Shown: positions 3 to 22,449 of the stretch, in pieces
How the letters are laid out: the number at the start of each line of letters is the position of its first letter
Numbering within the stretch: position 1 is the stretch's first letter
Origin: a virus
Taxonomy: Duplodnaviria > Caudoviricetes
Length of the DNA: 28,506 bases
IMG/VR virus record: IMGVR_UViG_3300047564_004945
Coordinates: 1-28,506 of that record
Reading direction: 5' to 3' (one strand)
Position numbers and translations under genes: made by a program
Notes under the pieces: model-generated
The model's database searches: none
What the model was told of the DNA's origin: nothing
The model's input: the letters and a program-made list of their open reading frames with translations, nothing else

Positions 3-596
3 ATTGGAGTAGGAACCACAAACCCATCACAAAAACTTGATGTTTTTGGTAATTTAAGACTGAGAAATGGTCTTATTGATTTCTTCAATAATGTTGGTGC
101 CGCAGGTAGTGTTTTAATTTCTACAGGCGCTGGAGTAAGTTGGTCAGCACAAGCACCAGGAGGAGCAACTTTACAGAATGATGTTGCCACTAATGCAACT
201 TGGTATCCAACTTTAGCTAGTACTACATCTGGTACTTATACCACTGCTTATGTTTCAAATACGAAACTCCAGTATAATCCATCTTCGGGAACGTTATTTG
301 CCACGGTCTTTACTTCTTTATCTGATAGAAATAAGAAAACTAATATTCGCAATATAGATAATTCTATAGAAATTGTAAAACAATTAGATGGAGTAAGATT
401 TGATTGGGTAGAAGATGGTAGTCCTTCAATTGGTGTTATAGCACAAGATATTGAAAAAGTATTGCCGGAAGTTGTCCAAACAAATGACGACGGAATGAAG
501 ACGGTTTCCTATGGAAATATAATAGGAGTACTAATTGAAGCAATCAAAGAACAACAAATTCGCATAGAAGAATTGGAGAAAAAAGTAAATGCCTAA
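3..596 (+). CDS. Tail fibre protein, 3' part (5'-truncated by window), with C-terminal peptidase S74 / intramolecular chaperone domain
   Basis: Not in the ORF track. Frame 3 is open from the window start: IGVGTTNPSQKLDVFGNLR...YNPSSGTLFATVFTSL-SDRNKKTNIRNIDNSIEIVKQLDGVRFDW...IGVIAQDIEKVLPEVV...VSYGNIIGVLIEAIKEQQIRIEELEKKVNA*. SD-x-x-x-K-x-NI, G(V/L)IAQ and the terminal coiled coil are hallmarks of the S74 autocleaving chaperone. Stop TAA 594-596 overlaps the next ATG (589). Confidence 0.9.
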   Translation: MGVGTTNPSQKLDVFGNLRLRNGLIDFFNNVGAAGSVLISTGAGVSWSAQAPGGATLQNDVATNATWYPTLASTTSGTYTTAYVSNTKLQYNPSSGTLFATVFTSLSDRNKKTNIRNIDNSIEIVKQLDGVRFDWVEDGSPSIGVIAQDIEKVLPEVVQTNDDGMKTVSYGNIIGVLIEAIKEQQIRIEELEKKVNA

Positions 597-3500
597 TCAG
601 TTTTTCTCACCAGAAGGAGATCTTGAAAATTATTTTGTAAATGAGTACTGGTTGATTGATCAGTACATTGGAGATCAGTTGTGGATATGGGGATCTGATG
701 CTTACAGTCATGGACTAGGTATTGGTGTAATAAATTCAAGTAGACAAACTCCAGTTACGACTACTGCCGGTGGGACTAATTGGAAACAAGTTAGTCTTGG
801 ATACGAACATTCTGCTGCTATTAAAACTGATGGAACTCTATGGACTTGGGGTACAGCTAGATTTTTGGGTAATGGAGATACCACTAACAATAAATCTACT
901 CCAATTACCACCTTTGCTGGTGGAACTGATTGGAAGCAAATTACAACTAGTAGAAGTGCCTCATTTGCGATCAAAAATGATGGAACTTTATGGACTTGGG
1001 GATATATTGGAATAGCGGGAGTTAATCTGTCATCTTTTATACATTTAAGCACTCCTGTCACTACCTTTGCCGGTGGAACTAATTGGAGGTCGGTTTCTGG
1101 AGGTGCTTTTCATGTAGCGGCAATTAAAACCGATGGAACCTTATGGACTTGGGGTGAGGGAGGTGATGATCAACTTGGAAATGGAAGTGATGATAGCAGA
1201 CTTACTCCAGTTACCACCTTTGCTGGGGGAAATGATTGGAAGCAAGTATCTCCCGGAAGAGCATTTACTGCAGCAATCAAGACTGATGGAACTCTTTGGA
1301 CTTGGGGATTTAATGGATTTAATCCAGATGGACAATTGGGGACAAATGATTCAATTTCTAGATCTACCCCTGTTACCACTTTTGTTGGTGGAACTAACTG
1401 GAAACAAGTATGTGCTGGTGCAAATCATGCAGCAGCAATCAAGACTGATGGAACTCTTTGGACTTGGGGAAATTCTTTGTATGGTCAGTTAGGAAATGGG
1501 CCACTTAGAAGAAGATTTACTCCAGTAACTACCTTTGCCGGAGGAAACAACTGGGCAGATACTCCTACAACAAATCCAGAAGATCTTTATACTTTGAATT
1601 CTGCTGCTAATGGTGGTGCGGCAATCAAGACTGATGGGACTTTATGGATTTGGGGATCTGGTTTTAGTGGGCAACTTGGAAACAATCAATCAGATCTTTC
1701 ATACACTCCAATTACTGTATTTTCTGGTGGAACTAATTGGAAACAAATAAGCACTTCATCTTCTTTTGTATCGGCAATCAAGACTGATGGAACTTTATGG
1801 ACTTGGGGATCTGGAATTAATGGAAGACTTGGAAGGTATACTGCATCTCAAGTAGAGACACCAGTAACTACCTTTGCCGGAGGAAACAACTGGGCAGATA
1901 CTCCTGCAGTAGAACCAGAAGATCTTTATACCTTAAGTGCCGGGGGTAATCATACGGCGGCGATCAAGACCGATGGAACCTTATGGACTTGGGGTAATGG
2001 AATTAATGGACAACTTGGAAATGCCTCAACTTTAATTAACAATTCCACTCCAGTCACCACATTTGCTGGAGGGACCAACTGGAAACAAGTAAGTTCTGGA
2101 AGTAATTTTACGGCAGTAGTTAAGACTGATGGAACTTTATGGGTTTGGGGTGAGGCAAGTAACGGAAAACTTGGTAATAATGTCTTAGATAATAATAAGT
2201 CCACTCCAGTTACTACCTTTGCCGGAGGAACCAATTGGAAACAAGTAAGTGCTGGGACATTTCACACATCAGCAATCAAAACTGATGGAACTCTTTGGAC
2301 TTGGGGTGCTGGAACTAATGCACGACTTGGAACCTTATCTTTGGGGAGCAGAATTACTCCAGTAACTACCTTTGCCGGAGGAAACAACTGGGCAGATACT
2401 CCTACAGTAGAACCAGAAGATCTTTATACCTTAAGTGCCGGGGGTAATCATACGGCGGCGATCAAGACCGATGGAACCTTATGGACTTGGGGTAATGGAA
2501 TTAATGGACAACTTGGAAATGCCTCAACTTTAATTAACAATTCCACTCCAGTCACCACATTTGCTGGAGGGACCAACTGGAAACAAGTAAGTTCTGGAAG
2601 TAATTTTACGGCAGTAGTTAAGACTGATGGAACTTTATGGACTTGGGGATTTGGATCTGGCGGATCTAGCGGTCAACTTGGAAATTCTCAAACAATTGAT
2701 GTATCCACCCCAATTACTACATTTTCCGGTGGAACTAATTGGAAACAAGTAAGTTCTGGAAATGCTCATACTGCAGCAATCAAAACCGATGGAACCTTAT
2801 GGACTTGGGGTGTTACCGGTAATGGTAGACTTGGAAATTCATCAATAAGTGGCATCGTATCTACTCCAGTTACAACATTCGCCGGAGGAACTGACTGGAA
2901 ATATGTTGGATGTGGTAATAATCATACTACAGCAGTTAAGACTGATGGAACCTTATGGGTTTGGGGTGAGGGAATTTCTGGAAAACTTGGTAATAATGCC
3001 ATATCTAATAGGTCCACTCCTATTACCACATTTGCTGGAGGGACCAACTGGAAACAAGCAAGCGGTGGATTAAGTCATTCTGCAGCAGTTAAAACTGATG
3101 GAACATTATGGGCTTGGGGACAAATAACTTTTGGACAAATTGGAAGTGGTGGTGCATCTAGTCCATTAACACCAGTTACCACATTTGCAGGAGGAACTGA
3201 CTGGAAACAAGTTGATTGTGGAAATGTTCATACAGCAGCAATTAAGACCGATGGAACCTTATGGACTTGGGGTTACAATTCCAGAGGGGAACTTGGAATA
3301 AATGATCTAGTAAATAGATCTACACCAGTTACTACCTTTGCCGGAGGAACCAACTGGAAACAAGTGAGTGCATTTTCTTTTACAATGGCACTTAGAGATG
3401 ATGGAGTGAATAAACAACTTTATGTGTGGGGTAATACTTCTAATGGAAGACTTGGAAATTCTAGAACTGGGGAAACACTATTTGAGTATCCTATAGAGGT

Positions 3501-5805
3501 TTACGGATGGTTTACTAATTGGAAACAAGTAAGTTCTGGAAATGCTCATACTGCAGCAATCAAAACCGATGGAACTTTATGGACTTGGGGTACTGCAAGT
3601 AATGGACGACTTGGAAATGCATCTCTAATTAATAGAACCACTCCAGTTACTACCTTTGCCGGAGGAACCGACTGGAAACAAGTAAGTTGTGGAGATGCTC
3701 ATACAGTAGCAATTAAGACCGATGGAACTCTTTGGACTTGGGGTTTGGGGGGTAATGGTCAAATTGGAGATGCCTCAGTTATAAGTACCAGGTCCACTCC
3801 TATTACTACATTTGCCGGAGGAACCAACTGGAAACAAGTGAGTTCTGGTAGTAATTATACTACAGCAGTTAAGACTGATGGAACCTTATGGACTTGGGGT
3901 GCTGGAAATAGTGGAAAACTTGGAAATGCGGACACAACCAGTAGATCCACTCCAGTCACTACATTTGCCGGAGGAACTAACTGGAAACAAGTAAGTTCTG
4001 GTAATGACCATACAGTAGCATTGAGAGATGATGGAGTAAATAAACAACTTTATGTTTGGGGAAATGCAAACCAAGGAAGATTAGGAAATTCTATCATAAA
4101 TGTTACACCATCAGTCTTTACTCCTATTACTACCTTTGCCGGAGGCACCAACTGGAAACAAGTAAGTTCTAGTGGTAATCATACTACAGCAGTAAAGACC
4201 GATGGAACCTTATGGACTTGGGGTTATGGAGCTTTTGGGAGACTTGGAAATGCGGACACGACTAGTAGATCCACTCCAATCACTACATTTGCCGGAGGAA
4301 CCGATTGGAGACAAGTGAGTTCTGGTAATGATCATACTTCGGCAATCAAGACTGATGGAACCTTATGGACTTGGGGATATGGAACTTCTGGACGACTTGG
4401 AAATGCAGTAACAACGGGTAATATATCCACTCCAGTCACTACCTTTGCCGGAGGAACCAACTGGAAACAAGTAAGTTCTGGAAGTAATTTTACGGCAGCA
4501 GTTAAGACTGATGGAACCTTATGGACTTGGGGTAGTAATACTGAAGGACAACTTGGAATTTTTTCTTTTGTTGTTGCTGGATTATCTGCAATATGTAATA
4601 CAACTACTATATTATCTGGAACAACTAGTTTTAATCCCGTACCTAACAATGGTCAAAGAATAATAACAGATGGTTCTGGTGGGATTTTAACTAACATTTC
4701 AACATTGATATTAGGTCCAGCATCTTTGAGTCAATCTACAACTCCAGATTTTAAAAATCCTAGTCCTCAATATGCCCCTGATGATGATGGATTTTGGGAA
4801 TTAACTTTACCCTTTAATATTTCTTATAATGGAGTATCGTATAATAAAATTTATGTAAGTACTAATTCTTATATAACTTTTGGAACAAAACCTGCCGATG
4901 ATTATGATCAAACTATTAATTGGAATTATACAACTGCAACTCCACCAATTCCAAAAATACAAATTTCAACCGCTGATAGATCTGCCCAAAGAATTTATTA
5001 TGGTACGGAAGGAACTTCTCCAAATAGAACTTATCGTGTAAGATTTGAAGGTCATATTTCTTTTCAAAATGGGATACTCGGATCACCAACTTTAGTTTGG
5101 GAAATGGTTTTTTATGAAAATATATCAAATCAAATTGACATTCAACCTGGAATTAATGATGATGCTTCAGGTTCTTTTATCGGCGTTACATCTACTCCGA
5201 TCACTACATTTGCCGGAGGAACCAACTGGAAACAAGTCAGTGCTGGAAATAATAATACATTCGCAATAAAAACTGATGGAACCCTATGGACTTGGGGTTA
5301 TGGAGGATATGGAGAACTTGGGAATGGGATAATAATGGGAACCGATGTAGTAGATGGACGTGTACCTACACCAATTACGACATTTCTTGGAGGAACAAAT
5401 TGGAAACAAGTGCATAGTTCTGGTGGTGTGCAAATTGCTCTTAATGATGATGGTGTAAATAAAAGACTATATGTTTGGGGATCTAATTTTGATGATTATG
5501 AACTTGGACTTGGTAATCCTCAGAATTGGGTTCCAGTAGAAGTTGATGGTAATGCTACTAATTGGAAGCAAGTGGATGGTGGATATGGAAATACGGCAGC
5601 AATCAAGACTGATGGAACCTTATGGACTTGGGGTTATAATGGTGATGGTCAGTTAGGAAATAATACTATACAGAGTTTTCAAAATAGAGCATACACTCCA
5701 ATCACTACGACTGCTGGAGGAACCAACTGGAAACAAGTGTCCTTTGGAAGGATACATGTATCAGCAGTACAATCTGGAATTAATGCAGAATATCCACTCT
5801 CATAA
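589..5805 (+). CDS. Giant RCC1/BLIP-II repeat beta-propeller protein 1 (28 repeats, four predicted nested 7-blade propellers, plus an inserted ~211-aa NIDO-like domain); putative virion adhesin
   Basis: 28 copies of LWxWG-x(n)-G(Q/R)LG-x(n)-TP(V/I)TTFAGGTNWKQVSxGxxHTAAIKTDGT, matching the RCC1 consensus. Overlaps the tail-fibre stop codon. Adhesin role is inferred from context. Confidence 0.9.
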   Translation: MPNQFFSPEGDLENYFVNEYWLIDQYIGDQLWIWGSDAYSHGLGIGVINSSRQTPVTTTAGGTNWKQVSLGYEHSAAIKTDGTLWTWGTARFLGNGDTTNNKSTPITTFAGGTDWKQITTSRSASFAIKNDGTLWTWGYIGIAGVNLSSFIHLSTPVTTFAGGTNWRSVSGGAFHVAAIKTDGTLWTWGEGGDDQLGNGSDDSRLTPVTTFAGGNDWKQVSPGRAFTAAIKTDGTLWTWGFNGFNPDGQLGTNDSISRSTPVTTFVGGTNWKQVCAGANHAAAIKTDGTLWTWGNSLYGQLGNGPLRRRFTPVTTFAGGNNWADTPTTNPEDLYTLNSAANGGAAIKTDGTLWIWGSGFSGQLGNNQSDLSYTPITVFSGGTNWKQISTSSSFVSAIKTDGTLWTWGSGINGRLGRYTASQVETPVTTFAGGNNWADTPAVEPEDLYTLSAGGNHTAAIKTDGTLWTWGNGINGQLGNASTLINNSTPVTTFAGGTNWKQVSSGSNFTAVVKTDGTLWVWGEASNGKLGNNVLDNNKSTPVTTFAGGTNWKQVSAGTFHTSAIKTDGTLWTWGAGTNARLGTLSLGSRITPVTTFAGGNNWADTPTVEPEDLYTLSAGGNHTAAIKTDGTLWTWGNGINGQLGNASTLINNSTPVTTFAGGTNWKQVSSGSNFTAVVKTDGTLWTWGFGSGGSSGQLGNSQTIDVSTPITTFSGGTNWKQVSSGNAHTAAIKTDGTLWTWGVTGNGRLGNSSISGIVSTPVTTFAGGTDWKYVGCGNNHTTAVKTDGTLWVWGEGISGKLGNNAISNRSTPITTFAGGTNWKQASGGLSHSAAVKTDGTLWAWGQITFGQIGSGGASSPLTPVTTFAGGTDWKQVDCGNVHTAAIKTDGTLWTWGYNSRGELGINDLVNRSTPVTTFAGGTNWKQVSAFSFTMALRDDGVNKQLYVWGNTSNGRLGNSRTGETLFEYPIEVYGWFTNWKQVSSGNAHTAAIKTDGTLWTWGTASNGRLGNASLINRTTPVTTFAGGTDWKQVSCGDAHTVAIKTDGTLWTWGLGGNGQIGDASVISTRSTPITTFAGGTNWKQVSSGSNYTTAVKTDGTLWTWGAGNSGKLGNADTTSRSTPVTTFAGGTNWKQVSSGNDHTVALRDDGVNKQLYVWGNANQGRLGNSIINVTPSVFTPITTFAGGTNWKQVSSSGNHTTAVKTDGTLWTWGYGAFGRLGNADTTSRSTPITTFAGGTDWRQVSSGNDHTSAIKTDGTLWTWGYGTSGRLGNAVTTGNISTPVTTFAGGTNWKQVSSGSNFTAAVKTDGTLWTWGSNTEGQLGIFSFVVAGLSAICNTTTILSGTTSFNPVPNNGQRIITDGSGGILTNISTLILGPASLSQSTTPDFKNPSPQYAPDDDGFWELTLPFNISYNGVSYNKIYVSTNSYITFGTKPADDYDQTINWNYTTATPPIPKIQISTADRSAQRIYYGTEGTSPNRTYRVRFEGHISFQNGILGSPTLVWEMVFYENISNQIDIQPGINDDASGSFIGVTSTPITTFAGGTNWKQVSAGNNNTFAIKTDGTLWTWGYGGYGELGNGIIMGTDVVDGRVPTPITTFLGGTNWKQVHSSGGVQIALNDDGVNKRLYVWGSNFDDYELGLGNPQNWVPVEVDGNATNWKQVDGGYGNTAAIKTDGTLWTWGYNGDGQLGNNTIQSFQNRAYTPITTTAGGTNWKQVSFGRIHVSAVQSGINAEYPLS
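1861..2640 (+). repeat. 282-bp direct repeat (1861-2142 and 2359-2640) within RCC1 gene 1
   Basis: By-eye alignment: offset 498 bp, one mismatch seen (G1906 vs A2404). A partial third copy lies at 9197-9330 in gene 2. Confidence 0.9.
4561..5193 (+). other. In-frame non-RCC1 insertion domain (NIDO/nidogen-G1-like beta-rich domain) within gene 1
   Basis: ~211 aa between GQLGI and TPITTFAGG of repeat 25. Contains DDDGFWELTLPFNISYNGVSYNKIYVSTNSYITFG and GTSPNRTYRVRF, recalling the DD..LPF.F.F.G..Y..(I/V)YV.TNG.I.F motif of NIDO-associated domains. Confidence 0.6.
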
Positions 5806-5813
5806 GATAAATA
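5806..5813 (+). promoter_or_regulatory. Candidate T4-like late promoter (GATAAATA)
   Basis: Matches NATAAATA in the 20-bp gap before the ATG at 5826. The same motif occurs in two other intergenic gaps. AT-rich background limits confidence. Confidence 0.45.
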
Positions 5814-5825
5814 ATTTAAAAAAAT

Positions 5826-6575
5826 ATGGAAATCGCATTAATTCATAATAACTCATTAATACTTGGACCAATGGGACTAAATGTGCGTATGATTAATAGC
5901 GAATTGGAAGATCTTGAACTTGAAGATCGTATATCTTCTCAAAGTTTTAGAGATCTTCCAATTCATTTTTCGGATGGTTTAAGTCATCTTGTTTCGATAG
6001 AAAAAGAAATACCAATACATGATCTTAAATATCATAATATTGGCAATTACGCCTGGGAAATTGTAGAAGAAAATAATGTTCCGGTCAGTGTTAAATTAAC
6101 TTATACTATTATAGATAAAACTTTGGAAGAAGTCAAAGAACTTCGTAAAAAAGAAATTGCACCAATAAGAAAAAATAAAGAAAATACAGTTGCTAAAATT
6201 TTTGTTAATGGAAATCCTGTAGAAATATCAACTTCAAGAGAAGAGAGATTATTGCTAACTTCGAAATTATCTTCATTCACTGGGACTTGTAATTATAAAT
6301 TTAAAAATACTTGGGCATCAATTACTCCACAAAATCTTCAACAAATTATTGGAGAAATTGATGTAGTAGTTCAGCAGGCATTTGATTGGGAATTGCAAAA
6401 AATAAACGAAATAGATGAATGTGAAACTATTGATGATGTTTATAATGTTGTTTTGCTTGAAGATAAAGTTATGGAGAGAATGAAAAGAAATATGGAATCA
6501 AAAAATAAAAAAAAGTTGAGTTTATATGAATCCAATTCCAGTTCCGAATTAAATTCAGATTTTAATAATAATTAA
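5826..6575 (+). CDS. DUF4376-like phage tail-fibre-associated protein
   Basis: C-terminal half KTLEEVKELRKKEIAPIRKNKE...WASITPQNLQQIIGEIDVVVQQAFDWELQKINEIDECETIDDV resembles the helical DUF4376 pattern found next to tail-fibre genes. Confidence 0.65.
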   Translation: MEIALIHNNSLILGPMGLNVRMINSELEDLELEDRISSQSFRDLPIHFSDGLSHLVSIEKEIPIHDLKYHNIGNYAWEIVEENNVPVSVKLTYTIIDKTLEEVKELRKKEIAPIRKNKENTVAKIFVNGNPVEISTSREERLLLTSKLSSFTGTCNYKFKNTWASITPQNLQQIIGEIDVVVQQAFDWELQKINEIDECETIDDVYNVVLLEDKVMERMKRNMESKNKKKLSLYESNSSSELNSDFNNN

Positions 6576-6580
6576 AAACT

Positions 6581-9500
6581 ATGTCTTCCAATAGAGTTCA
6601 AACTAATTTTAGAGATAGTGATGGTATTGACTTAGGAACTAAATTAATTACCAAAGATTATTTGATCAGTGTCTATCCGGAGATTGGTCAGCAAATTGGA
6701 ATTCCTCCAGAACTTTGGATGTGGGGACAAGCAGGTTCAGGAAGACTCGGAAATAGAATTGCAACAGGTAGTATATCTACTCCAGTCACTACATTTACTG
6801 GAGGAACTGATTGGAAACAAGTAAGTACTGGTGCAAATAATACATTCGCAATAAAAACTGATGGAACCTTATGGTCTTGGGGATCAATTGTTACTTCAGT
6901 TCAATTTAATTCTTCATCTTCTGTTCCCAGAAGCGTTCCAATTACTGCTTTTTCTGGTGAAACTAATTGGAAACAAGTAAGTACTGGACAATTTAGTACA
7001 GCAGCAATCAAAACTGATGGAACTCTATGGTTTTGGGGTTCTAATTTTTCCAGAGTTTTTGGAAATAATGCTGTTTTAGGATCAGTAAATCCAGTTACTA
7101 CATTATATACCCAAGGAAGTTGGAAACAAGTAAGTCTTTCAAGTGATGAAATAGCAGCAATTAAGACTGATGGAACCTTATGGACTTGGGGTAGTAGCTC
7201 TGCTTCTTCTAACCTTGGTAGACCATATCCAGATTTTTATATATCAACACCAATCACCGTATCTTCTGGAGGAACTAACTGGGCAATTGTTGATACAGAT
7301 CCAGAAAATCTTTATACCTTAAGTGCTGGATTTCAACATACAGCAGCAATCAAAACTGATGGAACTCTATGGACTTGGGGTAATGGATTATATGGAAGAC
7401 TTGGAAATGCAGTAACGACAGGCAATGCATCCACTCCAGTTACTACATTTACTGGAGGAACCAACTGGAGGCAAGTAAGTGGTGGGGATCTTCATACCGC
7501 AGCAATTAAGACCGATGGAACCCTATGGACTTGGAGTTTTGGGGGAGATGGGCAACTTGGAAATGCAGATATAACCAATAAATCCACTCCCGTCACTACA
7601 TTTACTGGGGGAACGAACTGGAAACAAGTAAGCTCCGGACTTTATCATACATCAGCAATCAAGACTGATGGAACTCTATGGACTTGGGGAGTAGGAAATT
7701 ATGGCCAACTTGGAAATGCAATAATAACAGGCAATAGATCCACTCCAACCACAACATTTGCCGGTGGAACCAATTGGAAACAAGTAAGTTCTGGACTTCG
7801 TTATACCACAGCAATTAAGACTGATGGAACCTTATGGACTTGGGGATATGGAACTTCTGGACGACTTGGAAATGCAGTAACAACGGGTAATATATCCACT
7901 CCAGTCACTACCTTTGCTGGAGGAACCAATTGGAGACAAGTAAGTGGTGGAGGTGAACATACAACTGCAATCAAGACCGATGGAACCCTATGGACTTGGG
8001 GTGGTGGAAATTCTGGACAACTTGGAAATACGGGCATAACTAATAGATCTACTCCAGTCACCACATTTGCCGGGGGAACTAATTGGAAACAAGTCAATGC
8101 TGGAGGTTTTCATACAGCAGCAATCAAGACTGATGGAACCTTATGGACTTGGGGTGATGGTGGTTTGGGGGCACTTGGGAATTTCCAAGTAACTTTTAGA
8201 TCCACTCCAATCACCACATTTGCAGGAGGATCTAATTGGAAACAAGTAAGTTCGGGAAGTGCTCGTACAATGGCATTAAGGGATGATGGAGTTAATAAAG
8301 AACTTTTTACTTGGGGTAATGGATTATATGGAAGTCTTGGAAATGCAGATATAACCGATAGATCCACTCCTGTTACCACATTTGTCGGAGGAACCAACTG
8401 GGCAGATATAGATACTGATCCGGAAAATCTTTATACTTTATCTATATCGAGAGAAAGATCTGCCGCAATCAAGACTGATGGAACTCTATGGGTTTGGGGG
8501 AATGGGTCTTATTATTTGGGAATAGGTGATAATATAGAGTATACTTTTACACCAGTCACTACATTTACTGGAGGAATCAACTGGAAACAAATAAGTGTTG
8601 GATACAATCATACAGCAGCAATCAAAACCGATGGAACTTTGTGGACATGGGGAAGAAGTCAAGATGTTGGTATTGTTATTTTTAATATTAGTACTCCGGC
8701 AACTACCTTTGCTGGAGGAAACAACTGGGCAGATACTCCTACAGTAGAACCAGAAGATCTTTATACCTTAAGTGCTGGAAATTTACATACTTCTGCAATT
8801 AAGACTGATGGAACCCTATGGGCTTGGGGTAGTGCATCTTTAGGAACACTCGGAAATGCAGTCGCATCAGGTAATATATCTACTCCAGTAACCACATTTG
8901 CCGGAGGAACCAACTGGAAACAAATAAGTGGTGGAAATTCTCATACATCAGCAATCAAGACTGATGGAACCCTATGGACTTGGGGTAATGGATTTAATGG
9001 AAGACTCGGAAATAGAATTGCAACAGGGTCTAGATCTACTCCAATCACTACATTTGCCGGAGGAACCGATTGGAAACAAGTGAGTTCTGGTAATGATCAT
9101 ACTTCGGCAATCAAGACTGATGGAACTTTATGGACTTGGGGTAGTGGAACTAATGGACAACTTGGAAGACCGCAATTTATATCTGCAATAAGTACTCCAG
9201 TAACTACCTTTGCCGGAGGAAATAACTGGGCAGATACTCCTACAGTAGAACCGGAAGATCTTTATACCTTAAGTGCCGGGGGTAAACATACGGCGGCGAT
9301 CAAGACCGATGGAACCTTATGGACTTGGGGAGATAATGTCTATGGTCAACTCGGAACTAATGATTTATTTAGTAAAATAACTCCCGTCACTACATTTTCT
9401 GGAGGCACTAACTGGAAACAAATTTCTTGTAATGTTTATACGGAAGCAACTCCTTTCGGAGAAAGTATTTTTGCAATTAAAACCGATGGAACTTTATGGG

Positions 9501-12500
9501 GATGGGGTTCAAATGGTTCTGATAATTTTGGTAGACTTGGCATTAATTCAAGTATTAATATTAATATATCCACTCCAATTACTACATTTGCTGGAGGAAC
9601 TAATTGGAAACAAGTTTCATGCAAATACAACCACGTTTGTGCAATTAAGACTGATGGAACCTTATGGGTTTGGGGTACAGGAAATTTTGGAAGACTTGGA
9701 ACTAATAATCAATCAAATAACCTAACACCAGTTACTACATTCTCTGGAGGAACTAATTGGAAACAAGTTAGTGCTGGAGCATTTCATACGGTAGCAATCA
9801 AAACCGATGGAACCTTATGGACTTGGGGTATTAATAATAATAGACAACTTGGATTGAATACTGATACTGCCAATAAACTAACACCAGTTACTACCTTTGC
9901 CGGAGGAACCGACTGGAAACAAGTCAGTTCTGGTATTAATCAGACGGCAGCAGTTAAAACCGATGGAACCTTATGGGTTTGGGGTAATGGAGTTAATGGA
10001 CGACTTGGAAATGGCATTATAACAGGTAATAGATCTACTCCAGTCACTACATTTGCTGGAGGAACTAATTGGAAACAAGTGAGTTCTGGTAATGACCATA
10101 CAGCAGCAGTCAAAACCGATGGAACTCTTTGGACCTGGGGATTTGGAGGTTCTGGAAAACTTGGAAATTTGGTAGCGGTAGGTCTTAGTGTATCCACTCC
10201 TGTTACTACATTTGCCGGAGGAACTAACTGGAAACAAGTAAGTTCTGGTAATGACCATACAGTAGCATTGAGAGATGATGGAGTAAATAAGCAACTTTAT
10301 GTTTGGGGAAATACTAATTTATTAGCAGTAAATATTCTAAATGATAATGAACCAAAAACAACATTTACTGGAGGAACCAACTGGAAACAAGTGAGTTCTG
10401 GAAATCAACATACAGTAGCAGTCAAGACCGATGGAACCTTATGGACTTGGGGTTATGGATCTTTTGGGAGACTTGGAAATGCGGACACGACTAGTAGATC
10501 CACTCCAGTCACTACATTTACTGGAGGAACTGATTGGAGACAAGTAGGTTCCGGAAGTTTACATACATCAGCAATCAAAACTGATGGAACTCTTTGGACT
10601 TGGGGTAATGGAAATTCCGGAAGACTTGGAAATGCAGTAACAACCAATGTATCCACTCCTGTTACTACCTTTGCCGGAGGAACCAACTGGAAACAAATAA
10701 ATGTTGGACCTGGACATAATGCTGCAATTAAGACCGATGGAACCTTGTGGACTTGGGGTAATGGAATTAGTGGACGACTTGGAAATGCCTCAACTTCAAT
10801 TATCAACTCCACTCCTATTACCACATTTGCCGGAGGAACCAACTGGAAACAAGTAAGTTCTGGCACCAATCATACAGTAGCACTTTTTGATGATGGAGTA
10901 AATAAAAGATTATATTCATTTGGAGATATTACATATACTGGAACAGGATCAATACGATTTTTTGTTCCTACTCTTATTGATAATAATGTCAACTGGAAGC
11001 AAGTAAGTGCTGGATCTAGGCATACAGCAGCAGTTAAAAATGATGGAACTTTATGGGTTTGGGGTAATGGAACTACTGGGGCTCTTGGTGGGTTTTCTTC
11101 ATTTAATAGATTTACTCCAACCACAACATTTGCCGGAGGAACCAATTGGAAACAAGTAAGTTCTGGAGATGCTCATACAGCAGCAATTAAGACCGATGGA
11201 ACCTTATGGACTTGGGGTCGTGGAACTTATGGAAGACTTGGAAATGGTATTGTAACTGGTGATAGACTTACTCCAGTCACCACATTCGCCGGAGGAACCA
11301 ACTGGAAACAAGTGAGTGCTGGGGCTCTTCATACATCAGCAATCAAGACCGATGGAACCTTGTGGACTTGGGGTAATGGAATTAGTGGACGACTTGGAAA
11401 TGCCTCAACTTCAATTATCAACTCCACTCCTGTTACTACATTTGCCGGAGGAACCAACTGGAAACAAGTCAGTGCTGGAGAACTTCATACGGCAGCAATT
11501 AAGACTGATGGAACCTTATGGACTTGGGGTTATGGAAATTCTGGACAACTTGGAAATACGGGCATAACTAATAGATCTACTCCAGTCACCACATTTGCCG
11601 GGGGAACTAATTGGAAACAAGTCTTTACCAGTCTTTCTCATACAATAGCACTTAAAGATGATGGAATTAATAAGGAATTGTATATATTTGGTGAAAATAA
11701 TTATTTAATAGGGAATACTAATTCAACTACTAGTAATGGAAATATTCCTGCAACTACCTTTGCTGGTGGAACCAACTGGAAACAAGTAAGTATTTCGGGA
11801 AGAAATACGGCAGCAGTTAAAAATGATGGAACTCTATGGACTTGGGGTCTTAATGCAAAAGGAGAACTTGGAAATACTAAAACAGAAGAGAGATCAACTC
11901 CAGTAACTACCTTTGCCGGTGGAACTAATTGGAAACAAGTGGATGTTGGATACAATCATACAGTAGCAATCAAGACAGATGGAACTCTATGGACTTGGGG
12001 TTATGATTCGAATTTAGGAATTGGATCATTATTATTTGAGCAATATACTAGTACTCCAATAACTACTTTTGCCGGTGGAACTAACTGGGCAAATACGCCA
12101 ACATCAAATCCAGAAGATCTTTATACTATATCATCTTCATCAGGATTTAGTTTTGAGTTTGATTATGCATCGATGGCAATTAAGACCGATGGAACTTTAT
12201 GGGTTTGGGGCACAAATCAATATGGATCATTGGGTACAAATAATACGAATAATGCTTTTACACCAGTTACCACATTCACAGGGGGGACAAATTGGAAGCA
12301 AATAGTAGCAGGATATTATACTACGGCAGCAATTAAGACCGATGGAACTCTATGGACTTGGGGAGTGGAATTTGATGGTAGACTTGGTAATAATAAAGTT
12401 TCATCTGCAAATGTGCTTACTCCAATCACTACATTTGCGGGAGGATCTAATTGGAAACAAGTGAGTACTGGATATTCTGCAACTGGAGCAATTAAGACCG

Positions 12501-13456
12501 ATGGCACTTTATGGTTATGGGGTTATAATATAAATGGGCAAGTTGGTAATAATAATGATATTGAAGTTAATACTCCAGTCACCACATTTGCCGGAGGAAC
12601 CAACTGGAAACAAATAAGTTGTGGAGGATATACAACCGCAGCAATCAAAACTGATGGGACATTATGGGTTTGGGGTGCTAATTTTTATGGTCAACTTGGA
12701 GATCTTGGTTATGGATTTCAATCTCTTACTCCAATCACTACTTTTGCCGGTGGAACTAATTGGAAACAAGTAAGTTCTGGACAAAGTCACATTGCGGCAG
12801 TTAAGACTGATGGAACCTTATGGTTATGGGGAACGAATAGAAACGGAGAACTTGGAAATGGTGAATCTAATACATTTACAGATGTAGTTACTCCAATCAC
12901 TACTTTTGCCGGTGGAACTAACTGGAAACAAGTAAGTTGTGGAGGGGAACTATCGGATTCACGTTATTCATCTACAGCAGCAATTAAGACTGATGGAACT
13001 CTATGGACTTGGGGGTATAATTATTCTGGAGTATTAGGTATAAACACTACAGACAATTCATCTACTCCGGTAACTACATTTGCTGGTGGAACTGATTGGG
13101 TACAAGTTTCTACATCTGCATCAAGTACTTTAGCACTTAAAAATAATGGATCTTTATATGTTTTTGGAGTTACAGCATCCTTGGGAGTTAATTATTCAAA
13201 TGTTGTTAGTACTCCATCCACCACATTTGCAGGAGGATCTAATTGGAAACAAGTGAGTAGTTCGTATTCAACGGGAGCAATCAAAACTGATGGAACTCTA
13301 TGGACTTGGGGTCTTGCCGGAGCCGGTAAACTTGGAAACGGGACAATAATAGGTTCTATATTATCTCCGATTACCACATTTGCAGGTGGAACTGATTGGA
13401 AACAAGTAAGTATTGGTCCAAATAATGCAGCAGCAATCAAGTCCGTAGATTTTTGA
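6581..13456 (+). CDS. Giant RCC1/BLIP-II repeat beta-propeller protein 2 (42 repeats, six predicted 7-blade propellers, branched/nested); putative virion adhesin
   Basis: 42 RCC1-type repeats with the same scaffold as gene 1, after a 44-aa N-terminal leader with no signal-peptide-like hydrophobic core. Confidence 0.9.
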   Translation: MSSNRVQTNFRDSDGIDLGTKLITKDYLISVYPEIGQQIGIPPELWMWGQAGSGRLGNRIATGSISTPVTTFTGGTDWKQVSTGANNTFAIKTDGTLWSWGSIVTSVQFNSSSSVPRSVPITAFSGETNWKQVSTGQFSTAAIKTDGTLWFWGSNFSRVFGNNAVLGSVNPVTTLYTQGSWKQVSLSSDEIAAIKTDGTLWTWGSSSASSNLGRPYPDFYISTPITVSSGGTNWAIVDTDPENLYTLSAGFQHTAAIKTDGTLWTWGNGLYGRLGNAVTTGNASTPVTTFTGGTNWRQVSGGDLHTAAIKTDGTLWTWSFGGDGQLGNADITNKSTPVTTFTGGTNWKQVSSGLYHTSAIKTDGTLWTWGVGNYGQLGNAIITGNRSTPTTTFAGGTNWKQVSSGLRYTTAIKTDGTLWTWGYGTSGRLGNAVTTGNISTPVTTFAGGTNWRQVSGGGEHTTAIKTDGTLWTWGGGNSGQLGNTGITNRSTPVTTFAGGTNWKQVNAGGFHTAAIKTDGTLWTWGDGGLGALGNFQVTFRSTPITTFAGGSNWKQVSSGSARTMALRDDGVNKELFTWGNGLYGSLGNADITDRSTPVTTFVGGTNWADIDTDPENLYTLSISRERSAAIKTDGTLWVWGNGSYYLGIGDNIEYTFTPVTTFTGGINWKQISVGYNHTAAIKTDGTLWTWGRSQDVGIVIFNISTPATTFAGGNNWADTPTVEPEDLYTLSAGNLHTSAIKTDGTLWAWGSASLGTLGNAVASGNISTPVTTFAGGTNWKQISGGNSHTSAIKTDGTLWTWGNGFNGRLGNRIATGSRSTPITTFAGGTDWKQVSSGNDHTSAIKTDGTLWTWGSGTNGQLGRPQFISAISTPVTTFAGGNNWADTPTVEPEDLYTLSAGGKHTAAIKTDGTLWTWGDNVYGQLGTNDLFSKITPVTTFSGGTNWKQISCNVYTEATPFGESIFAIKTDGTLWGWGSNGSDNFGRLGINSSININISTPITTFAGGTNWKQVSCKYNHVCAIKTDGTLWVWGTGNFGRLGTNNQSNNLTPVTTFSGGTNWKQVSAGAFHTVAIKTDGTLWTWGINNNRQLGLNTDTANKLTPVTTFAGGTDWKQVSSGINQTAAVKTDGTLWVWGNGVNGRLGNGIITGNRSTPVTTFAGGTNWKQVSSGNDHTAAVKTDGTLWTWGFGGSGKLGNLVAVGLSVSTPVTTFAGGTNWKQVSSGNDHTVALRDDGVNKQLYVWGNTNLLAVNILNDNEPKTTFTGGTNWKQVSSGNQHTVAVKTDGTLWTWGYGSFGRLGNADTTSRSTPVTTFTGGTDWRQVGSGSLHTSAIKTDGTLWTWGNGNSGRLGNAVTTNVSTPVTTFAGGTNWKQINVGPGHNAAIKTDGTLWTWGNGISGRLGNASTSIINSTPITTFAGGTNWKQVSSGTNHTVALFDDGVNKRLYSFGDITYTGTGSIRFFVPTLIDNNVNWKQVSAGSRHTAAVKNDGTLWVWGNGTTGALGGFSSFNRFTPTTTFAGGTNWKQVSSGDAHTAAIKTDGTLWTWGRGTYGRLGNGIVTGDRLTPVTTFAGGTNWKQVSAGALHTSAIKTDGTLWTWGNGISGRLGNASTSIINSTPVTTFAGGTNWKQVSAGELHTAAIKTDGTLWTWGYGNSGQLGNTGITNRSTPVTTFAGGTNWKQVFTSLSHTIALKDDGINKELYIFGENNYLIGNTNSTTSNGNIPATTFAGGTNWKQVSISGRNTAAVKNDGTLWTWGLNAKGELGNTKTEERSTPVTTFAGGTNWKQVDVGYNHTVAIKTDGTLWTWGYDSNLGIGSLLFEQYTSTPITTFAGGTNWANTPTSNPEDLYTISSSSGFSFEFDYASMAIKTDGTLWVWGTNQYGSLGTNNTNNAFTPVTTFTGGTNWKQIVAGYYTTAAIKTDGTLWTWGVEFDGRLGNNKVSSANVLTPITTFAGGSNWKQVSTGYSATGAIKTDGTLWLWGYNINGQVGNNNDIEVNTPVTTFAGGTNWKQISCGGYTTAAIKTDGTLWVWGANFYGQLGDLGYGFQSLTPITTFAGGTNWKQVSSGQSHIAAVKTDGTLWLWGTNRNGELGNGESNTFTDVVTPITTFAGGTNWKQVSCGGELSDSRYSSTAAIKTDGTLWTWGYNYSGVLGINTTDNSSTPVTTFAGGTDWVQVSTSASSTLALKNNGSLYVFGVTASLGVNYSNVVSTPSTTFAGGSNWKQVSSSYSTGAIKTDGTLWTWGLAGAGKLGNGTIIGSILSPITTFAGGTDWKQVSIGPNNAAAIKSVDF

Positions 13457-17777: not shown

Positions 17778-17793
17778 AAATATTCCCATCTCA

Positions 17794-20700
17794 ATGCCAA
17801 CATTTTATAACTTTACACAAGACGGTCTTACATATAGTTTTGATGATATTTTCGTCAAAGCAGATTTGTTTCGCCAAGGAAATTTGTGGAATTGGGGTAG
17901 AGGTGTAGCAGGAGCTCTTGGTGATGGGTTTTCTAATAGTTTTAGATCGACTCCAATTACCACATTTGTTGGTGGTAGTAATTGGAAACAAATTAGTACC
18001 GGAGGTCAGCATACTGTAGCAGTTAAGACTGATGGAACTTTATGGGTTTGGGGGTATAATAATAGAGGACAACTTGGAAATGCATCTATAACTGATAGAT
18101 CAACTCCAGTTACCACCTTTGCCGGGGGAAACGATTGGAAACAGGCAGAAGGTGGAACTAGTCATACAGTAGCCATTAAAACTGATGGAACTTTATGGTC
18201 TTGGGGTATGAATGATCAAGGTCAACTTGGGGTAAATGCTAGAGATAATAGTAGTCCTTTTAGTAGATCAACTCCAGTAACTACTTTTGTTGGTGGAACT
18301 AATTGGAAACAAGCAAGTGCTGGATATCAATATTCTGCGGCAATTAAGACTGATGGAACTTTATGGACTTGGGGATATGCATATTTTGGACAATTAGGTA
18401 AAGGTGGTTTTTATACATTAGTTAGATCCACTCCAATGACAACATTTGCCGGTGGTAATAACTGGGCAGATACTTCGGATACTTATTCGCCAGAAGATCT
18501 TTATACTATAGGTGGTGGAACTTTTTTTAATTTAGCAGTTAAAAATAATGGAACATTATGGACTTGGGGTTATGGATATCGAGGACAACTTGGAAATGCA
18601 ACTATTGCAACTAATATTTCTACTCCGATTACAACTTTTTCTGGTGGAACTAATTGGAAAGAAATAAGTGCTGGAAATGATCATGTTGCAGCAATCAAGA
18701 CTGATGGAACATTATGGGTGTGGGGATATGCAAATAACGGCCAACTCGGAACAAGTGATTTAATACCACAAAGATCTACTCCAATCACAACCTTTGCCGG
18801 AGGAACCAACTGGAAACAAATAAGTTCTGGAAATAATAATACTGCAGCAATCAAAACTGATGGAACATTATGGACTTGGGGTGGTGGATTTAGTGGAGAA
18901 CTTGGAAATGCAGATACAACTCTTAGATCCACTCCAATAACCACATTTACTGGAGGAACCGATTGGAAGCAAGTAAGTGTTGGATCAGGTCACTTAATAG
19001 CAATTAAGACTGATGGAACCTTATGGACTTGGGGTAATAGTAACTTTGGACAACTTGGAAATGCGTCTTCAGTTAAAACATCAACTCCAGTCACAACATT
19101 TGCCGGAGGAACTAACTGGAAACAAGTGAGTGCTGGTCTTTATAGTTCTACGGCAATTAAGACTGATGGAACCCTGTGGACTTGGGGTATGGGAAGTAAT
19201 GGAAAACTCGGAACTAATCAAGTATCTTCCTCATCTACTCCAGTCACCACTTTTGCCGGAGGAACCAACTGGAAACAAGTTAGCTCCGGTGGTTATCATA
19301 CATCCGCAGTAAAAACCGATGGAACCTTATGGACTTGGGGGTTTAATCTTTATGGACAAATCGGAAATGCAAGTGTAAATCAATCATTAACGCCAGTTAC
19401 CACTTTTATTGGGGGAACTGATTGGAAACAGGTTTATTCTTCATGGCAATCTACATTAGCAATAAAGGATGATGGATTTAATACACGTCTTTATTTGTTT
19501 GGTAGAAATTATAATGCAGAACTTGGAAATAAGGATATAGGAACTATAACAGGAAATATATCTACTCCAGTCACCACCTTTGCCGGAGGAACTGACTGGG
19601 CAACAGTTGAAACAGATCTTTATACTTTAAGTGCTGGAGGATCTTCTTCTTCGGCAATCAAAACCGATGGAACTTTATGGACTTGGGGGAATAACGGTCG
19701 TGGACAACTTGGAAATGGTTCTACAACAAATAGATCAACTCCTATTACTACATTTGCCGGTGGAACAAATTGGATACAAGTTAGTAGTACATCTCAGCAT
19801 AGTGCAGCAATTAAGACCGATGGAACCCTATGGACTTGGGGTAATGGAACTTTTGGACGACTTGGAAATGCAGTTACAACTAATGCATCTACTCCAGTCA
19901 CAACATTTGCCGGAGGAACAAACTGGAAACAAGTGAGTTGCCGTGATGATACTACAGTAGCTGCTCATACCGCAGCAATCAAGACCGATGGAACCTTATG
20001 GGTTTGGGGTTTTGGTGGTAATGGAAGACTTGGAAATGGTGTTACTAATTTTAGTGGTACATCAACTCCAATCACCACCTTTGCCGGAGGAAGCGACTGG
20101 AAACAAGTAAGTTGTGGATTTACTTATACAGTAGCAATTAAGACTAATGGAACATTATGGGCTTGGGGTACGTGTCAAAATGGAGCACTTGGAAATGGAG
20201 TCATAACAGGTAATATATCTACACCAATCACCACATTTACAGGAGGAACCAACTGGAGACAAGTGAGTGCTGGTTTTGATACTACATCAGCAATTAAGAC
20301 TGATGGAACCTTATGGGTTTGGGGTTCGGGAGGTCGTGGGACACTTGGAAATGGAATAACAGCAAATGGTAGATCCACCCCAATCACCACATTTGCAGGA
20401 GGAACTAACTGGAGACAAGTGAGTGCTGGATCGCAGCATATAGCAGCAGTCAAAACTGACGGAACATTATGGACTTGGGGTTATACAAAAGGTGGGCAAC
20501 TTGGTATTGGATATGGGGCGTATGATTTTGGTAGTACTATTGAGTATAATGTAAGATCCACTCCTGTTACCACATTTGTCGGAGGATCTAACTGGAAACA
20601 AGTTAGTGCTGGAGGTCAGCATACAGTAGCACTCAATGATGATGGTGCAAATAAAAGATTGTACACCTGGGGATATAATCGAGATAATCAAATTGGAGAT

Positions 20701-22449
20701 AGTTTTTTTGTTGAGATTAATGATGCTCCTGGAAAAGTGGGGGATAGTTCTAATTGGAAACAAGTTTCTTGTTCATATCATTCTACTGCTGCACTTAAAA
20801 CTGATGGAACTCTTTGGACTTGGGGGGATAATGCACAAGGTCAACTTGGGACTGCTCAATTATTTAAAGGTAGTGCTGAACCAATTACTACATTTGCCGG
20901 AGGAACCGACTGGAAACAAGTCAGTGCCGGTGGATATTATTCAGTAAACATGATGGCAGCAATTAAAAATGATGCGACTTTATGGACTTGGGGTAATTCA
21001 TATCTTGGAATACTTGGAAATACAAAGTCTCCTCTTTCCACTGCACCCGAAACTGAACTTTATGTGTCTACTCCAATCACCACATTTGCCGGAGGAATAG
21101 ACTGGAAACAAGTCAGTGCCGGTGGATATCATATGTCGGCAGTTAAAACAAATGGAACTCTATGGACTTGGGGTAGTGGTACTCAGTATCAATTAGGTAT
21201 AGGATATGATCCTCTTCAACCATCTAGATCGACACCAGTCACAACATTTGCCGGAGGAACTAATTGGAAGTCCGTTGGATCTTCTGGAGGATACAATGTT
21301 TCTGCCATACAATACAACGATATTCTCACAAATCCACCAGATGTGTTTAGGTTATTTACTTGGGGTTATGGATTTACTGCTGCTCTTGGAAATGCATCAG
21401 ATGCATCAAATTCTTCCGTACCAATTACAACATTTGCTGGAGGAAGTAATTGGAGGCAGGTAAGTGTAGCAAGAGATGTTACATGTGCAATCAAAACTGA
21501 TGGAACTTTATGGATATGGGGAGATGCTGCAAGCGGTTTACTTGGTAATGGATTAACAACAGGTTTTATATCCACTCCAATCACCACATTCTCTGGAGGA
21601 ACTAATTGGAAACAAGTCAGTATTGAAACTTACCACGCAGCAGCAATCAAAACTGATGGTACTCTTTGGACTTGGGGAGAAGGATTTGCTGGTTATCTTG
21701 GAACTAATGATTTAAATGATAGATCAACTCCAGTCACAACATTTGCCGGAGGAACTAATTGGAAACAAGTTTCTTCAGGAAGATATCACGTAGCAGCAAT
21801 TAAAACTGATGGAACTCTATGGACTTGGGGTGGTAATGCTGATGGTGAACTTGGAAATGCATCTACATCTAATACATCTATATCCACCCCAATCACCACA
21901 TTTGCCGGAGGGACCAACTGGAAACAAGTCGCTGGTGGTTATGCACATACAGCAGCAATCAAGACTGATGGAACTTTATGGACTTGGGGTCTAGGTCAAG
22001 ATGGAAGAATTGGAAATGCAGTTATAACAAACACTAGCGTATCAACGCCAGTTACTACCTTTGCCGGAGGGACTAATTGGGAACAAGTTTCTTGTGGAAG
22101 TTTGCATGTAGCAGCAATCAAAACTGATGGAACTTTGTGGACTTGGGGAGGTACAGCATCTGGAGCACTTGGAGATGGTACTGCTTCTTTTTTAATTGGT
22201 CGTTCAACTCCAATTACAACGTTTGCCGGAGGAACCAACTGGAAACAAATAGGTGCTGGAGGATATTGTACTGCTGCAATTAAAACAGATGGAACTCTAT
22301 GGACTTGGGGAGTTGGAGATGATGGAAGACTTGGAAATAGAGTAACAACCGGTGATATATCCACTCCAGTCACTACATTTGCTGGAGGAACTAATTGGGA
22401 AAGTTTGGAATGTGGATATAATAGAGTTGGTACAATCAGAAAAAATTAA
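17794..22449 (+). CDS. Giant RCC1/BLIP-II repeat beta-propeller protein 3 (28 repeats, four predicted 7-blade propellers); putative virion adhesin
   Basis: 28 RCC1-type repeats with the same scaffold as genes 1 and 2, after a 30-aa leader. Confidence 0.9.
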   Translation: MPTFYNFTQDGLTYSFDDIFVKADLFRQGNLWNWGRGVAGALGDGFSNSFRSTPITTFVGGSNWKQISTGGQHTVAVKTDGTLWVWGYNNRGQLGNASITDRSTPVTTFAGGNDWKQAEGGTSHTVAIKTDGTLWSWGMNDQGQLGVNARDNSSPFSRSTPVTTFVGGTNWKQASAGYQYSAAIKTDGTLWTWGYAYFGQLGKGGFYTLVRSTPMTTFAGGNNWADTSDTYSPEDLYTIGGGTFFNLAVKNNGTLWTWGYGYRGQLGNATIATNISTPITTFSGGTNWKEISAGNDHVAAIKTDGTLWVWGYANNGQLGTSDLIPQRSTPITTFAGGTNWKQISSGNNNTAAIKTDGTLWTWGGGFSGELGNADTTLRSTPITTFTGGTDWKQVSVGSGHLIAIKTDGTLWTWGNSNFGQLGNASSVKTSTPVTTFAGGTNWKQVSAGLYSSTAIKTDGTLWTWGMGSNGKLGTNQVSSSSTPVTTFAGGTNWKQVSSGGYHTSAVKTDGTLWTWGFNLYGQIGNASVNQSLTPVTTFIGGTDWKQVYSSWQSTLAIKDDGFNTRLYLFGRNYNAELGNKDIGTITGNISTPVTTFAGGTDWATVETDLYTLSAGGSSSSAIKTDGTLWTWGNNGRGQLGNGSTTNRSTPITTFAGGTNWIQVSSTSQHSAAIKTDGTLWTWGNGTFGRLGNAVTTNASTPVTTFAGGTNWKQVSCRDDTTVAAHTAAIKTDGTLWVWGFGGNGRLGNGVTNFSGTSTPITTFAGGSDWKQVSCGFTYTVAIKTNGTLWAWGTCQNGALGNGVITGNISTPITTFTGGTNWRQVSAGFDTTSAIKTDGTLWVWGSGGRGTLGNGITANGRSTPITTFAGGTNWRQVSAGSQHIAAVKTDGTLWTWGYTKGGQLGIGYGAYDFGSTIEYNVRSTPVTTFVGGSNWKQVSAGGQHTVALNDDGANKRLYTWGYNRDNQIGDSFFVEINDAPGKVGDSSNWKQVSCSYHSTAALKTDGTLWTWGDNAQGQLGTAQLFKGSAEPITTFAGGTDWKQVSAGGYYSVNMMAAIKNDATLWTWGNSYLGILGNTKSPLSTAPETELYVSTPITTFAGGIDWKQVSAGGYHMSAVKTNGTLWTWGSGTQYQLGIGYDPLQPSRSTPVTTFAGGTNWKSVGSSGGYNVSAIQYNDILTNPPDVFRLFTWGYGFTAALGNASDASNSSVPITTFAGGSNWRQVSVARDVTCAIKTDGTLWIWGDAASGLLGNGLTTGFISTPITTFSGGTNWKQVSIETYHAAAIKTDGTLWTWGEGFAGYLGTNDLNDRSTPVTTFAGGTNWKQVSSGRYHVAAIKTDGTLWTWGGNADGELGNASTSNTSISTPITTFAGGTNWKQVAGGYAHTAAIKTDGTLWTWGLGQDGRIGNAVITNTSVSTPVTTFAGGTNWEQVSCGSLHVAAIKTDGTLWTWGGTASGALGDGTASFLIGRSTPITTFAGGTNWKQIGAGGYCTAAIKTDGTLWTWGVGDDGRLGNRVTTGDISTPVTTFAGGTNWESLECGYNRVGTIRKN

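Follow-up and report, generated by a model that had tools for sequence, protein, structure and literature searches.

The stretch of DNA analysed here (the window) is one contig of 28.5 kilobases, positions 1 to 28,506 of virus record IMGVR_UViG_3300047564_004945 (Duplodnaviria; Caudoviricetes), with its main genes all on the plus strand. Three of them, here called g1, g2 and g3, encode proteins of RCC1 repeats in which two kinds of variant repeat stand as opening and closing brackets around units of seven. This bracket feature is real and highly non-random. The interpretation that we favour as the probable one is that each seven-repeat bracket folds as a ring inside a loop of its parent, giving a branched multi-head protein, probably a host-binding tail adhesin. 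Nesting as such is highly probable and, given nesting, the junction likely lies in the GxLG..TP loop. Nesting is supported because the seven-rule holds in relatives not seen before, because whole brackets are gained or lost, because loops co-vary in nested order and because the structural model of one relative, P0154, is nested.

Repeats were split at the LWxWG-type strand, hairpin hN being the one that comes after strand N. This gave 28, 42 and 28 repeats in g1, g2 and g3 (98 in total), and together with the parser it reproduced the repeat counts and the balance of opens and closes (3/3, 5/5 and 2/2) claimed in a sequence-only reading of the window. Opens were found at h6, h8 and h11 of g1, at h4, h11, h13, h16 and h34 of g2 and at h4 and h11 of g3, and the corresponding sets of closes at h17, h21 and h26, at h10, h22, h26, h31 and h40, and at h10 and h17. 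Brackets were first marked by hand and then reproduced by an automatic parser; each of the 10 bracketed units, minus its children, and each of the four roots holds seven hairpins. The exact probability that markers placed at random give an all-seven parse is 1.3e-4 for g1, 4.8e-7 for g2 and 1.7e-3 for g3. The tree of g1, .....(.(..(.....)...)....).., is a root with a three-deep chain, that of g2, ...(.....)(.(..(.....)...)....)..(.....).., a root with five units, while g3 is a root with two sibling units followed by one tandem propeller, its root count of 7+7 being divided by an ordinary tandem linker (Table 1). The claim of 14 propellers nested in one another accordingly needs trimming: the 10 inserted units and four roots all count seven, but g3 ends in a propeller that is simply joined on in tandem. 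The two variant repeat types mark the brackets in general, the exception being the fifth close of g2 (ALKNNGSLYVFG), whose loop is not extended by 3 residues and which changes in its B- and C-strands alone reveal as a close. Even with this last open/close pair left out, g2 parses as four seven-units, with 14 repeats for the root (P=5e-6).

The scan of relatives for bracket balance and the count of seven was done on two sets. The tuning set comprised 120 proteins and 56 unique complete open reading frames (ORFs) from the loci, with 62 open-motif proteins besides the window's own; the parser was revised twice on this set, two earlier versions having mislabelled markers, and was then frozen for a hold-out of 203 new proteins, for which the query was chosen by the motifs and not by their spacing. 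In the tuning set 40 of the 62 marker-bearing relatives parse with sevens throughout and 128/138 units count seven. Among the 83 short hold-out proteins the open motif occurs in 64, and 49 of the 56 closed units count seven, the others being four units of 6 and one each of 4, 5 and 8; of the apparently complete hold-out proteins 36/57 parse as all-seven. In 2000 shuffles of the markers the mean number of seven-units was 6.6 for the tuning set and 2.5 for the hold-out, with maxima of 16 and 10. No markers were present in 40 single-propeller ORFs, and among 120 proteins longer than 3042 amino acids the open pattern was triggered in only two, both times spuriously. The cleanly parsed set contains 28 distinct tree shapes with depths of up to five in all three gene slots, and its child units sit at root sites 0-5 while the root count stays seven. 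The markers themselves are also regular in clean relatives: the open linker has 9 residues in 134/144 cases and the turn of the close 7 residues instead of 4 in 136/145, accompanied by paired B- and C-strand changes.

Comparison of orthologues shows that whole brackets are gained or lost. Orthologous repeats are shifted by exactly +7 across one bracket between g2 and P0014, between g3 and P0067/P0075 and between g1 and P0054/P0063, and P0014 is an orthologue without one unit of the g2 h4-h10 kind. Multi-propeller orthologues were used here, instead of a blade-by-blade mapping of single-propeller orthologues onto the window roots, which was uninformative because the repeats are homogenised. Units are also copied between paralogues: a unit at the deepest level of a g1-type protein recurs, together with the loops on either side of it, at the first level of a g2-type protein, the 415-residue stretch being 97.6% identical. 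For either protein the NCBI record is a contig 190,745 bases long, which makes a common genome probable. Within the window, bases 2359-2640 of g1 are a 99.6% copy of 1861-2142, a 282-base-pair block starting at the entry strand, and several blocks of 120-140 base pairs are common to g1 and g2; these near-identical copies were found by exact-seed search and had been missed by self-BLAST of the window. In a tree of 92 innermost units the nearest unit came from the same gene slot in 38 cases, compared with 26.7+/-5.5 after shuffling, which suggests a weak slot structure.

The loops flanking a bracket carry information on pairing. When the loop before an open is compared with the loop after its nested partner the correlation (rho) is 0.31, for 91 units in 35 proteins that include two of the window's own and are not phylogenetically independent. 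First-in-first-out pairing of entry and exit loops gives 0.13 and within-protein shuffles 0.14+/-0.04, and none of 1000 shuffles reaches the nested value. The sites used for branching are restricted as well. Grandchildren occupy the two positions flanking the stalk, by which the child itself is attached, in just 1/36 cases, and where one parent bears successive children (15 cases) these are spaced by 0, 2 or 3 sites and never by 1. Avoidance of stalk-adjacent sites is what a closed ring predicts, although recombination tract length may contribute too.

For structure prediction we used AlphaFold (AF2) on P0154, a complete relative of 14 repeats, with an alignment of 16 rows sharing the same tree. 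The model has a mean predicted local distance difference test score (pLDDT) of 58.8 and a predicted template modelling score (pTM) of 0.49; sheets are near 80 and connectors under 50. Its inner ring, residues 321-673, superposes on UVR8 with Z 37.4 and a root-mean-square deviation (rmsd) of 2.5 over 339 aligned residues, and the outer range 28..753 superposes rigidly on HERC2 RLD2 (Z 34.4, rmsd 2.4, 319 aligned), with five further RCC1-family rows spanning 28-29 to 751-753. Inner and outer ring both resemble closed seven-bladed rings (rmsd 2.4-2.5). The inner ring uses up its seven hairpins, therefore the second ring consists of repeats 1-5 and 13-14 and the model is nested. With moderate confidence, P0154 is modelled as an inner ring of consecutive residues and an outer ring made of two separate stretches. 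RCC1-type rows start at the TP strand before the open and UVR8 rows end just past the GxLG that follows the close; further down the ranking (19-50), 29 of 32 rows, propellers outside the RCC1 family and mostly WD40, align from 298-305 to 662-664, a range that begins with the TP strand ahead of the open and ends with the strand of the close. From these starts and ends the junction is placed in the GxLG..TP loop.

If the rings are nested, their junction could still lie one strand later, with the parent keeping the TP strand before the open and the strand after the close serving as the child's last one. The open motif would then be an inter-domain linker into an "open" UVR8-type child beginning with blade 1 strand A and ending with blade 7 strand D. 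This arrangement accounts well for the fact that residues are added solely to the D-A link, which holds the nine-residue linker and is lengthened in a second family of bracketed proteins (described below) too. The TP strand is canonical before the open in 78/102 cases and after the close in 26/104, compared with 740/812 normally, so that the odd residues would cluster in one blade; the loops at 5/6 sibling junctions are canonical, and UVR8, an open propeller according to passages of PMC4617170, has an N-terminal entry that can be aligned with the open motif. Nevertheless, all 11 UVR8 rows end at chain residue 365-367, before the last outer strand of UVR8 (Pro ~371), and RCC1- and WD40-type rows of the P0154 model start at the pre-open TP strand. 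Both GxLG..TP loops are, in addition, specialised (GxLG is followed by Arg in 54% of the loops before an open and in 1% of normal ones), co-vary and travel with the cassette. On these grounds we regard the one-strand-later junction as unlikely.

Several observations weigh against the nested adhesin as we propose it. In the relatives, 22/62 tuning and 21/57 hold-out proteins are without a clean parse, although many of the failures viewed (part of the tuning set and 11 hold-out cases) are due to missed strands, false markers or degenerate closes. There are real six-repeat units in P0008, L011, P0160, P0163 and P0170, four-repeat units in P0194 and P0087 and a root of 10 in P0121, and gp335 of Synechococcus phage S-SRM01 has six repeats; the claim of exactly seven is thus right for most units but fails for these. 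The first set served to tune the parser, and the relatives are not independent. In the P0154 model, whose overall scores are moderate, junction residues 290-326 and 666-683 have pLDDT <50 and the interpretation is from alignment ranges. The extra residues are in the D-A link and not in the GxLG..TP loop, which the one-strand-later junction explains more simply. The proposed insertion into the GxLG..TP loop is therefore where the P0154 model places the junction, but at low local confidence and with the later junction possible. The model of g1 residues 424-1189, the double nest of the window itself, is poor (pLDDT 44.5, pTM 0.38): its inner bracket h11-h17 matches UVR8 weakly (Z about 20, rmsd 5-6 A), several rows span ~18-28..513-518 and so mix outer and inner blades, and no structural match extends beyond residue 552 of 766, leaving the outer C-terminal blades unreached. 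Matches listed from BFVD are other viral RCC1 proteins, with query TM-scores all <=0.41. Finally, virion proteomics or binding data for g1/g2/g3-type proteins were looked for and none were found.

Six-repeat units also have a counterpart in a six-repeat single protein, L053:12602-13636. Together with the six-repeat brackets named above this suggests either that six-bladed rings are tolerated or that assemblies have collapsed by one repeat. In P0075, P0016 and P0159 the closes are degenerate, the extended loop being gone while the seven-spacing and the atypical next strand are kept. The more distant P0089, with 21 repeats, shows variants of hairpins 2 and 8 besides a linker at 14, and would parse as a root with a child plus a tandem propeller, with yet other motifs. 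RCC1 proteins of ~4,400 amino acids (P0211, P0213, P0214, P0215, P0231 and P0088) form the second family, with different entry and exit motifs. A rough pattern drawn up from P0214 gives 23/27 closed units of seven in the six proteins, with three unmatched closes and roots that are not clean. A second, independent origin of the bracket grammar with other motifs is plausible from these sequences.

The simplest alternative to nesting is that consecutive seven-repeat or larger rings are formed and the markers are relics of gene growth. The repeats are indeed near-interchangeable and homogenised, the window-fragment model gave no clean nest, ten-bladed RCC1-like rings have been suggested (in the part of PMC2716378 consulted), and totals divisible by seven, found in 88/126 marker-bearing relatives, are expected from linear folding also. 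But such rings must break at the tight 4-residue KTDGT turn. These turns are present at g1 repeats 7/8, 14/15 and 21/22, while the linear relatives P0059, P0037 and P0074 carry a longer linker after each seventh repeat; in the window that linker occurs a single time, at the last propeller of g3. The sequence-only reading had already held that a linear 7+7+7 scheme fails, and this is borne out by the turns. Linear folding also leaves unexplained the conserved size of the brackets, their sliding position, the avoidance of stalk-adjacent sites and the nested model, and we consider it very improbable.

Mis-joining of near-identical repeats in short-read assembly is a further possible source of the pattern. 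The window sequence is present in four freshwater metagenome runs from two studies, and RNA data sets containing it were absent among the matches listed. Logan contigs from these runs cover all 30 bins of the window but break at repeats and none spans the genes; their joints are indistinguishable from repeats of other phages. The orthologues P0158 and P0170 are one repeat apart, perhaps through collapse. On the other hand, mis-joining would not yield the seven-rule in 76 other proteins and 28 trees, and a separate IMG/VR contig, possibly of common source with the window, is 99.8% identical over window positions 1-13528 and has the same trees. An artefact of this kind is hardly credible.

The nested architecture could have arisen as follows. 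The ancestral state is one closed propeller per gene, as found in S-SRM01 and the 40 marker-less single-propeller ORFs. The predicted cassette would lead from the parent GxLG through a stalk loop to the child's outer TP strand and the 9-residue open linker, and then through seven blades to the close hairpin, GxLG, a second stalk loop and the parent's outer strand. The child would be a circular permutant closed in the WD40 manner, and the two loops would form a two-stranded stalk. Since the repeat cores are near-identical (AIKTDGTLWTWG, TPVTTFAGGTNW), a double crossover would be able to move the cassette with both stalk loops into any blade of any ring. A cassette may enter a ring that is itself a cassette, therefore the process would be recursive. 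Selection for closed rings would hold the counts at seven and keep new branches off stalk-adjacent blades. Judging from synteny, heads with loops that vary from repeat to repeat would bind host surface structures and gain reach and avidity. The GxLG..TP loop also hosts a foreign domain in g1, which supports this loop as an insertion site. On a narrow balance of probability, then, we are dealing with a self-inserting folding cassette, a permuted propeller with a matched two-strand stalk that can recombine into any blade, its own copies included; it would build dendrimer-like proteins from a single chain, with a context-free bracket grammar legible in the sequence, and would be a strain-variable diversifier of host range that seems to have arisen at least twice, with different punctuation motifs.

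Repeat and ring themselves are ordinary. Repeats of g1, g2 and g3 are ~51 residues long and have the SxG..H, LxxWG and GxLG motifs of the RCC1-like superfamily, and in Pfam searches PF00415, PF13540 and PF25390 are all far above cut-off in the three proteins. The same repeat and seven-bladed fold are found in RCC1, RPGR, the HERC1/2 RLD, BLIP-II and Kti13 (PF00415/PF25390, PDB sequence matches, Z up to 35.5), and the window roots are like RCC1-like domains in beginning with the C-D strands and ending with an A-B hairpin. Solved RCC1-like domains match as single rings, while in a window root the chain would be broken up by complete rings made of the same repeat, at blades and depths that vary. 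UVR8, the best structural match of the P0154 inner ring, is a free-standing plant photoreceptor of contiguous blades; in the P0154 model blade 7 is closed with the pre-open strand instead. The whole is best explained as recursive insertion of propellers into propellers, which would be a new architecture made from a known fold.

The closest precedent for the insertion is the triple WD40 propeller Trm734 (BPA/BPB/BPC), in which, according to passages of PMC6847430, the whole of BPB branches off behind BPA strand c7 and the chain then re-enters BPA at d7, a c-d loop insertion. DDB1 has three WD40 domains too. The alignment ranges of the P0154 model agree with a c-d loop insertion, at a junction pLDDT <50. 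Our proteins do not belong with the WD40-repeat proteins, since Pfam gives RCC1-type families alone and WD40_RLD is described as an RCC1-like domain. Moreover, Trm734 has one fixed insertion between divergent rings, in contrast to the same-family cassette of the window proteins and their relatives, which would be mobile, occurs in many blades and up to five deep, is punctuated and is gained or lost between strains. The literature searched, which lay mostly outside subscription journals and did not extend to supplements, gave no description of nested or recursive RCC1 propellers; PMC12906663, as far as seen, was a false match, RCC numbers being strain names there.

The best annotated relative, at 55% identity, is S-SRM01 (Kyanoviridae), whose gp335, gp337 and gp344 stand in the same gene order, that of Kyanoviridae-like cyanomyophages: fibre(S74)-RCC1-hypothetical-RCC1-TPR-2OG-...-RCC1-sulfotransferase. 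The N-terminal leaders of its first and third slot are of the same types as in the window. Its RCC1 genes are single propellers of 344, 405 and 393 amino acids with 6, 7 and 7 repeats and no markers. We infer from this likeness a cyanophage origin of the window; host and family rest on S-SRM01 because the contig is without core genes.

A role of the RCC1 proteins as virion adhesins has, from sequence and gene order, a little better than an even chance. Of 14 distinct loci with a recognised S74 fibre gene, 13 have it adjoining the g1-type gene; in the window the two overlap by 8 nucleotides. In S16/T2-type phages the gp38 gene is placed directly behind that of gp37, the distal part of the long fibre. 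The g1-type gene is like S16/T2-type gp38 in its position behind a fibre gene, and its attachment is putative, from synteny. The likeness is one of position; gp38 has a glycine-rich head and no propeller. In S16, gp38 attaches to gp37 via a short N-terminal domain (PMC9608196, in part). Leaders of 30-44 amino acids, specific to each slot, are found at 589-678, 6581-6712 and 17794-17883 of the window and are conserved across phages whatever the number of propellers; they had no match in a Pfam search and are likely attachment modules. A segment of ~50 residues just before the S74 cleavage site (window 165-320, and the fibre ends of L002-L052) is conserved despite unrelated shafts, collagen-like and others, and is a possible docking site.

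Whatever their fold, the RCC1 proteins could instead act inside the cell or be a scaffold for neighbouring modifying enzymes, which we give somewhat less than an even chance. The neighbours of g2 and g3 are genes resembling those of glycosyltransferases, sulfotransferases, 2OG-oxygenases and methyltransferases, PHROGs places RCC1 families outside "tail", and the consulted passages of the S-SRM01 paper make no mention of the RCC1 genes. Adhesins are favoured over this by the neighbourhood of the S74 fibre, by the exchange of RCC1 slots between near-identical phages, and by hypervariable loops, varying head number and a NIDO-like insert, which would fit surface binding. A predicted complex of the fibre-tip trimer with a single-propeller g1 orthologue (L040) scored 0.00 with controls that did not fold, and was counted neither way.

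Remaining features of the window are of interest mostly as neighbours (Table 1). The insert in g1 has an ESM Atlas feature score of 0.92 to a cluster with 70% PF06119, and no match to Pfam (PF06119 NIDO) at E<=1. Other repeats of P0014 and P0024 carry similar inserts, as does the end of P0131, so this domain seems to be mobile as well. Besides RCC1 proteins the window encodes TPR, 2OG-oxygenase, sulfotransferase, glycosyl- and methyltransferase-like genes. From 13487 to 28268 the TPR/glycosyltransferase-like, 2OG-oxygenase, sulfotransferase and methyltransferase genes are interleaved with the RCC1 genes in a conserved order, and virion proteins may be substrates of this cluster. Contig L024 is practically identical to the window up to ~16.5 kilobases, followed by a block that is ~70-90% alike, and has a single seven-repeat propeller in the g3 slot (L024:11414-12595) in place of the 28 repeats of the window. 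This is an exchange of allele blocks between near-identical phages.

Table 1. Features of the window (nucleotide positions; aa, amino acids)
Feature	Position	Strand	Basis
Tail fibre C-terminal part, Peptidase_S74 intramolecular chaperone	3..596	+	PF13884 E 3.8e-16; PHROGs tail-fibre families
g1, 1738 aa, 28 RCC1 repeats	589..5805	+	repeat split, Pfam, parser
g1 unit h6-h26, depth 1; open 1552-1596, close 5437-5481	1519..5508	+	parser
g1 unit h8-h21, depth 2; open 1891-1935, close 4018-4062	1858..4086	+	parser
g1 unit h11-h17, depth 3; open 2389-2433, close 3388-3432	2356..3456	+	parser
~210-aa NIDO-like domain inside GxLG..TP loop of g1 repeat 25 (lead only)	4558..5187	+	ESM Atlas
249-aa ORF between g1 and g2, weakly DUF4376-like / tail-fibre-associated	5826..6575	+	phrog_10508 E 2e-6; PF14301 E 0.049, below cut-off
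g2, 2291 aa, 42 RCC1 repeats	6581..13456	+	repeat split, parser
g2 unit h4-h10; open 7280-7321, close 8273-8317	7247..8341	+	parser
g2 unit h11-h31, contains h13-h26 (8693-10942), which contains h16-h22 (9194-10324)	8366..11713	+	parser
g2 unit h34-h40; open 12086-12130, short close 13133-13168	12053..13186	+	parser
g3, 1551 aa, 28 RCC1 repeats	17794..22449	+	repeat split, parser
g3 unit h4-h10; open 18463-18510, close 19459-19503	18430..19527	+	parser
g3 unit h11-h17; open 19597-19629, close 20629-20673	19564..20697	+	parser
Ordinary tandem linker, g3 root to last propeller	21310..21351	+	same linker kind after every 7th repeat in P0059, P0037, P0074

Repeat proteins are usually read as beads on a string, and the consecutive windows of domain callers likely misplace most of the boundaries in these proteins. 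With a recursive insertion rule legible in the sequence, the evolution of branched, discontinuous multidomain proteins by plain homologous recombination has a testable model, and designers of multivalent binders gain a stalk-and-closure module from nature. For freshwater cyanophages it is a possible route of receptor-binding diversification, in which the number and geometry of heads are varied. The isolated phage S-SRM01 has the unbranched form, and the diversification idea is testable there.

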